Assembly (NCBI RefSeq): GCF_055900595.2
Contig: NZ_CM148325.1
Reading direction: 5' to 3' (one strand)
Length of the DNA: 64,000 nt
This document shows positions 3,366 to 52,132 of the stretch, one piece after another; position 1 is the stretch's first letter; each line of letters opens with the position of its first letter. A program made the position numbers and the translations under genes. A model generated the notes under the pieces. The model saw only the letters and a program-made list of their open reading frames with translations, was not told the DNA's origin and made no database searches.

Positions 3366-4778
3366 TTACTTCCGCAGTTCAGCAGTCCGCTTCTTACCAA
3401 TAAACAACCAGCCCAACCCCAGCGCGATAAACCACAGCGGGGTAACCAGCAGCGCCTGGCGAGTGTCATCTTCCAGTGTCAGCAACACGACCACGAACAC
3501 AAAGAACGCCATACATACCCAGCACATCAGCTTGCCGAGCGGCATCTTGTAGATCGACTTCTCATGCAGATGAGGTCGCTGTTTGCGATACACCAGGTAT
3601 GAGCAAAGGATAATCGTCCAGACGAACATAAACAGAATCGCGGAAACAGTCGTGATCATCGTGAACGCGCCAATTACACTTGGATTCACATACAACATCA
3701 CCACGCCGCCGAGCAGACAGATACAAGAGAAGGTCAGCCCTTTCGCGGGCACGGCGCGCTTAGAAAGTTTAGCGAACGCTTTCGGCGCAACACCTTCCTG
3801 GGCCAGACCAAACAGCATACGGCTGGTAGAGAAGACGCCGCTGTTAGCGGAAGACGCCGCAGAGGTCAGCACCACAAAGTTGATTACGCTGGCAGCCGCA
3901 GGCAAACCCACCAATACAAAAAGTTCAACGAACGGGCTTTTCTCCGGGACTACTGAACTCCACGGCGTCACGGACATAATCACAATCAGCGCGAAGACGT
4001 AGAACATAATGATACGGATCGGAATGGAGTTAATCGCGCGTGGCAGTGATTTCTCCGGATCTTTGGTTTCCGCAGCGGTTGTACCGACCAGCTCAATCCC
4101 CACGAAAGCGAATACCGCTATCTGGAATCCGGCAAAGAAGCCACTTAAACCTTTCGGGAACCAGCCGCCGTCATTCCACAAATGCGCAAACGACGCTTCC
4201 ACACCGGTCGGTGACTGGAAGTGCATCATGACCATGATCAAACCGACAACAATCAGTGACACGATGGCGACAATTTTGATCATCGCAAACCAGAACTCCA
4301 TCTCACCGAACATTTTCACGGTAGCGAGGTTGAGCGTCAGCAGCAGCACTATCACCGCCAGCGAGGCGACCCAGTCGGAGAGATCGGGGAACCAGAACTG
4401 AGCATAGGCCGTGATGGCCACCACGTCCGCCATACCGGTAACCACCCAACAGAACCAGTAGGTCCAGCCAGTAAAATACCCTGCCCACGGCCCCAGTAGA
4501 TCGGAAGCGAAGTCACTAAAAGATTTGTATTCCAGATTCGAAAGCAGCAATTCCCCCATTGCCCGCATCACGAAAAAGAGCATAAAACCGATGATCATAT
4601 AAACGAAGATGATCGACGGTCCGGCAAGACTGATTGTTTTACCGGAACCCATAAACAGCCCTGTACCAATGGCCCCACCAATGGCAATAAGCTGGATATG
4701 TCGGTTTGTGAGATTGCGCCGTAGCGACTGTTCAGCCGGAGCCTGTTCTTCGGCAACGACTTTTACCTGATCTACCAT
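3366..4778 (-). CDS. cycA: D-serine/D-alanine/glycine:H+ symporter CycA (APC family)
   Basis: 470-aa polytopic membrane ORF recognised as E. coli CycA. Confidence 0.93.
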   Translation of the reverse strand: MVDQVKVVAEEQAPAEQSLRRNLTNRHIQLIAIGGAIGTGLFMGSGKTISLAGPSIIFVYMIIGFMLFFVMRAMGELLLSNLEYKSFSDFASDLLGPWAGYFTGWTYWFCWVVTGMADVVAITAYAQFWFPDLSDWVASLAVIVLLLTLNLATVKMFGEMEFWFAMIKIVAIVSLIVVGLIMVMMHFQSPTGVEASFAHLWNDGGWFPKGLSGFFAGFQIAVFAFVGIELVGTTAAETKDPEKSLPRAINSIPIRIIMFYVFALIVIMSVTPWSSVVPEKSPFVELFVLVGLPAAASVINFVVLTSAASSANSGVFSTSRMLFGLAQEGVAPKAFAKLSKRAVPAKGLTFSCICLLGGVVMLYVNPSVIGAFTMITTVSAILFMFVWTIILCSYLVYRKQRPHLHEKSIYKMPLGKLMCWVCMAFFVFVVVLLTLEDDTRQALLVTPLWFIALGLGWLFIGKKRTAELRK

Positions 4779-17003: not shown

Positions 17004-17520
<517 letters not shown>

Positions 17521-38174: not shown

Positions 38175-39476
<1,302 letters not shown>

Positions 39477-51502: not shown

Positions 51503-51578
<76 letters not shown>

Positions 51579-51613
51579 TTGGGTGGTCTGTGCTTTGCAG
51601 CACTTTCAAATTT

Positions 51614-51689
<76 letters not shown>

Positions 51690-51846
51690 TTAATCTTCGT
51701 CTTTCGAACCGCTACTGCCTTGGCTGCCTTCACTCACCTTAGTCACTTACTTTTGTAAGCTCCCAAGGATTCGTTCAGTTGCCGCCTTGTCACAATTCGA
51801 AATACTGCGATTGGGTGGTCTGTGCTTTGCAGCACTTTTCAAATTT

Positions 51847-51922
<76 letters not shown>

Positions 51923-52132
51923 GTACTACTTAATTTTGCTTTCGTAATTTTCGCATTTCTGCGTCGTTACGGGAGGCGCATTATACGAGAAATCTTTTCC
52001 TCTGCAACCCCCCTAAAAATTTTTTTTTGAGTTTTTATCTCAAGTGCTGAAATTATCAGCAAGACGTTCAATTTAGCGTCAAAATCACGCCGCCGCAAGT
52101 GGATTCCGGCGCTTACGTGACCAGGAAAAATT

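Follow-up and report, generated by a model that had tools for sequence, protein, structure and literature searches.

The window, by which we mean the whole 64,000-nt stretch of contig NZ_CM148325.1 (RefSeq assembly GCF_055900595.2) that was analyzed, contains an array of three tRNA-Gly(GCC) genes, all on the minus strand and mutually identical according to both ARAGORN and the Rfam tRNA model, the latter giving 69.1 bits for each (Table 1). Its neighbors, queG at one end and orn with rsgA at the other, are those of glyV-glyX-glyY in K-12. Its two spacers are very unequal. The original prediction had read lengths of 35 and 157 nt from the letters and described the longer spacer as a 36-nt unit with about 121 nt added; the lengths are borne out by the ARAGORN and Rfam coordinates, and the composition by the short spacer, which the 36-nt unit repeats, and by K-12, where the glyVXY spacers measure 36 and 35 nt and the pairwise alignment leaves one clean 121-nt gap, with a placement ambiguity of 2 nt. 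The remainder of the long spacer, the 36-nt unit, is identical to the entire glyV-glyX spacer of K-12 and matches the short spacer of the window in register at 90% identity. The original prediction had also considered that K-12 might have the same long spacer, in which case it would simply be ancestral; the K-12 alignment lacks the 121 nt.

Judging by its sequence, a site upstream of the first tRNA gene is probably the promoter of the operon. Its TATAAT is followed by a GC-rich discriminator, an A/T-rich tract lies upstream, and the region is identical to that upstream of glyV in K-12. A consensus promoter scan made no call at this putative promoter, and the forward primer of the in vitro glyVXY precursor sits just downstream of it (PMC3985628). 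Each native spacer of the array is predicted to form a small hairpin (GUGCUGCAAAGCAC; 51822-51835 and 51590-51603, minus strand); in other genera, this is GUAUCGCAAGAUAC or similar, with both sides of the stem differing and the loop similar, and the Klebsiella-type spacers, 23-24 nt long, are without it. Two other Rfam matches in the window concern different matters: a sub-threshold hit to YrlA (Y RNA-like; 51526-51664, minus strand; 40.3 bits vs. a gathering score of 69) covers parts of two adjacent tRNA genes and was rejected as an artifact of the tandem tRNAs, and the RpsF leader (RF02893) at 17397-17481 on the minus strand, with 110 bits, is an ordinary ribosomal-protein leader.

Table 1. 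Features of the tRNA-Gly(GCC) array, in the order of transcription
Feature	Position	Strand	Evidence or remark
Probable operon promoter	51980-52007	minus	TTGCAG, 16 nt, TATAAT; read from sequence
Promoter-proximal tRNA-Gly(GCC), glyV equivalent	51847-51922	minus	ARAGORN, Rfam 69.1 bits, K-12 glyV alignment
Long spacer, 157 nt, between proximal and middle tRNA genes	51690-51846	minus	121 extra nt plus 36-nt unit
Native 36-nt spacer unit	51811-51846	minus	A/U-rich AAAUUUGAAA directly after CCA end
ERIC/IRU (RU-1) element, 121 nt including 2-nt flanking repeat	51690-51810	minus	Consensus alignment, fold, covariation
Middle tRNA-Gly(GCC), glyX equivalent	51614-51689	minus	ARAGORN, Rfam, K-12 alignment
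Empty spacer, 35 nt, between middle and distal tRNA genes	51579-51613	minus	Ends ...CACCCAA before tRNA
Promoter-distal tRNA-Gly(GCC), glyY equivalent	51503-51578	minus	ARAGORN, Rfam, K-12 alignment

For the additional 121 nt, the original prediction had offered three readings: a decayed fourth copy of the tRNA, a processed-spacer RNA, and the scar of an integration or excision event. The first of these, a pseudogene of tRNA-Gly left by duplication within the array, is a natural thought in a tandem tRNA setting, and GGTTCGAAA and CCAAGG-like strings recall the T arm and the anticodon arm. The strings that had been pointed out, GGTTCGAAA on the transcribed strand and tcgaac..ccttggc on the plus strand, are indeed present, but they resemble a tRNA no more than chance allows: aligned locally with tRNA-Gly, the element scores 10 at best, and 121 of 500 shuffles of the element did as well. 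ARAGORN, with thresholds ranging from 100% down to a relaxed 70%, finds no tRNA genes in the 157-nt spacer, and the Rfam tRNA model has no match there at E<=10; the Rfam models as a whole returned nothing for the spacer either, whether the region was searched at E<=10 or the whole window at the gathering threshold. The piece is instead homologous over its full length to a known repeat, ERIC, and the "T-arm-like" GGTTCGAAA turns out to be the 3' half of the basal stem of that repeat, changing to GCTTGAAA in about half of the orthologues while the partner arm covaries with it. A relic of a fourth tRNA gene is, in our judgment, practically out of the question.

The scar of a phage or genomic island, integrated into or excised from a tRNA gene, is extremely improbable as well. 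While tRNA genes often serve as integration sites and strains differ in whether they have the piece, an integrase leaves behind a second copy of the tRNA 3' segment, and no such segment is duplicated here, the only direct repeats being the tRNA genes themselves and the 36-nt unit. The extra piece directly adjoins the downstream tRNA at its 5' end, shows ERIC homology from one end to the other, and occupies one site across genera.

The extra 121 nt are a near full-length ERIC/IRU/RU-1 miniature inverted-repeat element. The ERIC repeat family was described in 1990-91. Its name stands for enterobacterial repetitive intergenic consensus, and its members are MITE-like, ~127 bp in size with terminal inverted repeats, sit in transcribed intergenic regions, and give a stem-loop transcript (PMC2759123, PMC2229807, PMC3184786, PMC10969869). 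Our reference was the Wilson and Sharp consensus for E. coli ERIC (RU-1), 127 nt long, as given in Table 1a of Delihas 2007 (PMC2759123). The plus strand of the 121 nt aligns globally with this consensus end to end with a score of 149, against 48 for the opposite orientation, and blastn finds 78.6% identity over 103 nt (E=2e-19), with orthologues of other genera reaching up to 86%. The homology takes in the conserved central inverted repeat, and the core of the element, read on the transcribed strand as ...GAATCCTTGGGAGCTTACAAAAGTAAGTGACTAAGGTGAG..., resembles the ERIC/IRU core. Transcription of the operon reads the element in reverse complement to the consensus as printed, the orientation with the better fold, and the element stops 2 nt short of +1 of the tRNA that follows.

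The same family is dispersed widely over E. coli genomes. A sensitive search with the 121 nt alone against 5426 complete E. coli genomes found matches at 38,783 places in 5026 of them (median 8 per genome), most of these family members being 70-80% identical to the query; none of the matches listed had an annotated feature under it. One example lies in the metR-metE intergenic region, where the K-12 annotation marks no repeat. A second ERIC copy was not found within the 64 kb of the window.

At its ends, the gly-array copy differs from the textbook picture. The comparison of filled and empty sites gives a flanking 2-nt repeat of AA on the transcribed strand (TT on the plus strand), while ERIC reports have TA, both at the termini and as the duplicated target site; being a match of only 2 nt, the AA carries little weight, and the termini are degenerate after long residence. 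The last letters ahead of the tRNA are ...TTAT or ...ATAT in some genera. On either side, the outermost 10-12 nt depart from the ERIC consensus, and the element is 119-121 nt long. In most other respects, the element is like the rest of the ERIC/IRU family: it has the size (~120-127 nt), homology over the full length, and a long imperfect hairpin, and it resembles them in its intergenic placement within a transcribed unit, its dispersed relatives, its internally deleted variants, and its presence in some strains but not in others. Unlike a typical ERIC copy, on the other hand, it has non-consensus ends and an AA repeat, lies between the tRNA genes of a stable-RNA operon rather than beside protein-coding genes, and is, as one and the same copy, held at one orthologous site across many genera.

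The last point comes from a comparison of orthologous loci, which were fetched from 80 species through the adjacent Orn protein and each analyzed with ARAGORN; the sample for the distribution consists of the 52 loci with at least two gly genes. A full-length element, alike in site and orientation throughout, is found at 15 of the 52, with spacers of 139-158 nt. The carriers are a divergent Escherichia lineage, six Citrobacter species, Leclercia, Klebsiella oxytoca, Enterobacter asburiae, Kluyvera, Silvania, Superficieibacter, Buttiauxella, and one further genus, and among them, the element occupies spacer 1, spacer 2, or both. In approximately eight further species, spacers of 68-94 nt contain internally deleted versions that retain the basal architecture ((((...(..(((((((...)))))))..)...)))). 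Of the 52 species in the sample, 23 lack the element, as do ~70% of E. coli genomes. The word "insertion" in the original prediction is correct in that the piece is extra relative to K-12, but it misleads about direction: with the element at one and the same site in many genera, a loss on the way to the empty K-12 array is no less likely than a gain in the filled ones.

The junctions are the same in every full-length copy, ...CCACC(C)AA / TCGCAG ... GAAGATTA(A/T) / GCGGG, and the empty spacers of all genera end with ...CACCCAA. Moreover, the termini AATCGCAGGATTTC... and ...GAAAGACGAAGATTAA are common to all gly copies and unlike the ERIC consensus. With junctions, orientation, and private termini all in common, a single ancient insertion is favored over repeated hits of a hotspot. 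Two of the fetched loci deserve a separate mention. The one labeled Escherichia coli SCPM-O-B-8794 (L003) represents the divergent Escherichia lineage, its orn DNA being 94.5% identical to that of the window and 85% at third codon positions, and has the element in spacer 1. Enterobacteriaceae bacterium UBA7338 (L069) has a full-length element (157-nt spacer) and a truncated one (77-nt spacer) in spacers 1 and 2 of the same array, with the termini ...GAATAT and ...GATTAA; the difference indicates that the two units have diverged from each other inside this one array.

Among the 5426 complete E. coli genomes, 1606 (~30%) have the whole spacer of 157 nt, and the spacer contiguous with the glyV leader likewise in 1606 of the 5426; none of the E. 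coli records listed has the element annotated at the gly site. The copies fall into two main allele classes, ~99-100% and ~97.5% identical to the window, and a close match to the window's element is absent from ERL06-2503 (probably O157) and ATCC 25922. The architecture of the array varies too. Counting only single-piece matches to synthetic junction queries and the loci that were fetched, the element stands directly before the last tRNA in 27 genomes, ETEC4077 (L083) and OkiPb01701 (L085) have two tRNA genes with a single, filled spacer, and A39 (L084) has three tRNA genes with both spacers filled. Such arrays are what recombination between identical 76-nt tRNA units produces when it duplicates, deletes, or relocates the unit bearing the element.

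In our judgment, it is highly probable, as regards both its identity and its history, that the 121 nt are an ancient and constrained ERIC copy in the glyV-glyX spacer that has been shuffled and lost by recombination of the array. An ERIC element would have inserted into the gly array once and then been inherited vertically, the variants in presence, absence, and position arising when the identical 76-nt tRNA units recombine unequally or undergo gene conversion, and not through fresh transposition. As array recombination explains the polymorphism among strains, no call for transposition is needed, and the within-locus movement of the gly copy is, in this respect, unlike what is expected of ERIC as an element mobilized in trans by a transposase. 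A competitor to this history is recurrent transposition, with ERIC elements independently hitting a tRNA-adjacent hotspot in each genus and E. coli lineage. ERIC is, after all, regarded as a mobile MITE (PMC2759123, PMC3184786), the occupancy is patchy, with spacer 1, spacer 2, both, or none being filled, even within Citrobacter, and some copies, those of Kluyvera and Superficieibacter, show about equal identity to the E. coli consensus of ERIC (86%) and to the gly copy of E. coli (87-89%). Against this, all the copies share the same non-consensus termini, junctions, and orientation. The nearest non-gly ERIC copy in E. coli is at most 81% identical to the window's element, whereas Citrobacter gly copies reach 89-94%. 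The divergence of the element also tracks that of the hosts (Spearman 0.65 between element and third-position divergence), as expected for vertical descent, and the two-tRNA and doubly filled arrays of E. coli demonstrate that array recombination alone is able to move or copy the element. We consider recurrent transposition very unlikely.

The element has changed slowly. Compared with the window, its identity in other species is 78.5-96%, while the third codon positions of orn range over 59-85%, the orn-glyV leader over 64-94%, and the native part of the spacer over 42-94%. Across 120 species pairs, the mean divergence is 11.7% for the element, 38.9% for the third positions of orn, and 15.4% for orn as a whole; the element is slower than the third positions in all 120 pairs and, taking these as the synonymous sites of orn, diverges about three times more slowly. 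Part of this slowness could come not from selection but from exchange of the array between species via the identical tRNA genes.

The RNA of the spacer is predicted to fold into a long imperfect hairpin with a small hairpin upstream, at -49.4 kcal/mol (z=-4.5 against dinucleotide shuffles). In the consensus structure of 17 copies, the 38 pairs are formed in 98.3% of the cells, and nine pairs have changed on both sides, compared with 3.6+-1.3 in column shuffles; none of the 500 shuffles reached as high, although, the species being related, 0/500 is not to be read as a probability. When the partners were slid by one to three columns, zero or one such pairs remained. Four G-U pairs are conserved, and as they turn into A-C on the other strand, the fold is asymmetric: the transcribed strand of the 17 copies folds at approximately -41 kcal/mol and its complement at approximately -21 kcal/mol, with a mean strand difference of -15.5+-3.3 kcal/mol and the transcribed strand being the better in every copy. 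The ERIC consensus shows a weaker asymmetry in the same direction (-61.8 vs. -45.2 kcal/mol). Finally, the unpaired columns are conserved to the same degree as the paired ones, and the pattern points to constraint acting on the sequence of the element as well as on its pairing.

An ancient ERIC copy without any role, changing slowly by hitch-hiking with the tRNA array, by exchange between species, or by correction of its quasi-palindrome, is a possibility that we take seriously without favoring it. Most E. coli genomes and many species do without the element, and tandem arrays undergo conversion. Template switching in quasi-palindromes can create apparently compensatory changes. Similarly, replication slippage across a palindrome gives symmetric internal deletions, and the truncated derivatives alone are no proof of selection. 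On the other hand, the native part of the same spacers is far less conserved than the element, and the unpaired columns are as well conserved as the paired ones. The four G-U pairs also count against a passive passenger: correction of the palindrome at the DNA level would erase them, yet they are kept, and the transcribed strand folds better, by ~15 kcal/mol, in 17 of 17 copies, which points to constraint on the RNA of the transcribed strand.

Returning to the ancient and constrained ERIC copy, we can outline what it might do. Within the operon, tRNA genes flank the element on both sides, and a scan detected no promoter- or terminator-like sites inside the spacer; a reading of the piece as an internal promoter or attenuator was dropped on this ground. 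In K-12, glyVXY yields one precursor RNA, which is an efficient substrate of RNase E in vitro (PMC3985628). The element would be co-transcribed inside the polycistronic pre-tRNA, where RNase E would cut in the conserved AAAUUUGAAA tract just past the CCA of the upstream tRNA and RNase P at +1 of the downstream tRNA. The two cuts would release a spacer fragment of ~150 nt with a 3' end 2 nt beyond the base of the hairpin. A helix of ~40 base pairs near the 3' end of the fragment may slow down 3' exonucleases and, being near the RNase P site, could alter the rate of 5' maturation of the downstream tRNA. The processed-spacer RNA of the original prediction may be correct, since the piece would have to be transcribed with the tRNAs and cut out of their precursor. 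The constraint on both its sequence and its fold points to a possible role of the hairpin as RNA: it may tune how the downstream tRNA is processed, or it may end up as a stable RNA of the spacer. The fuller proposal, that the captured ERIC copy is a selected structured spacer, tuning RNase P and RNase E or acting as a sponge-like RNA of ~120-150 nt, and switchable by recombination of the array, is one that we hold to be rather unlikely as it stands.

The idea of a working spacer is not without parallels. Lalaouna et al. reportedly described in 2015 that the 3'ETS of leuZ and the internal spacer of metZ-metW-metV serve as sRNA sponges in E. coli. The gly spacer is like these in being a spacer of a pre-tRNA, in its predicted release by RNase E and RNase P, and in its structure that putatively protects against 3' exonucleases; it is unlike them in being derived from a MITE and in being unrelated in sequence. 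Regulatory RNAs of this type are marked by a stable processed fragment, Hfq binding, and pairing with sRNA or mRNA targets; for the gly spacer, the predicted release and the protective hairpin are the points of likeness. Hairpins derived from repeats are found in transcripts elsewhere, too: the Correia/NEMIS elements of Neisseria and the REP elements form co-transcribed hairpins that alter the fate of the RNA (PMC10969869, PMC3184786), serving as RNase substrates or as barriers to exonucleases. They belong to other families and other hosts, and for the Correia elements, cleavage by RNase III has been shown. Closest to our case are the ERIC hairpins of Yersinia, which, as far as De Gregorio et al. 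2005 is relayed in later articles, alter the fate of transcripts in an orientation-dependent manner through an RNase E site in one terminal repeat (PMC2229807, PMC10969869).

Taken alone, one more ERIC copy is ordinary. What may be new is the long-term orthologous retention, under constraint, of a single ERIC copy in a tRNA operon, together with a natural series of alleles. In the literature searched, nothing linked ERIC to the glyVXY operon. Wilson and Sharp 2006 reportedly list 14 ERIC loci in non-K-12 strains, according to a later article (PMC10969869), and the glyV-glyX site may be one of them. With the tRNA-relic and integration-scar readings replaced by a well-supported ERIC identity, the common length polymorphism of glyVXY is explained; it will recur in comparisons of strains and in ERIC-PCR patterns. 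The gly-array copy is also well suited, as a clean example from nature, to the old question of whether ERIC has any function: alleles that are filled, empty, doubled, or truncated exist in nature and allow direct comparison of tRNA maturation and of the stability of the spacer RNA.

Some minor observations concern the region between orn and the array and the region upstream of orn. In five loci of the Klebsiella/Raoultella group (L016, L020, L022, L026, and L030) and in Salmonella enterica subsp. arizonae (L029), the distance from orn to the first gly tRNA is about 860-1000 nt greater than elsewhere, placing that tRNA near 4106-4255 in the fetched locus, compared with ~3230 in other genera; something has thus been inserted between orn and the gly array. 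ERIC copies also occur upstream of orn, in one genome each of Citrobacter (L005:1165-1287), Buttiauxella (L054:189-310), Serratia (L077:366-447), and "Enterobacter sp. 10-1" (L026:1200-1325), and these are nearer to the general ERIC consensus than to the gly-array copy.
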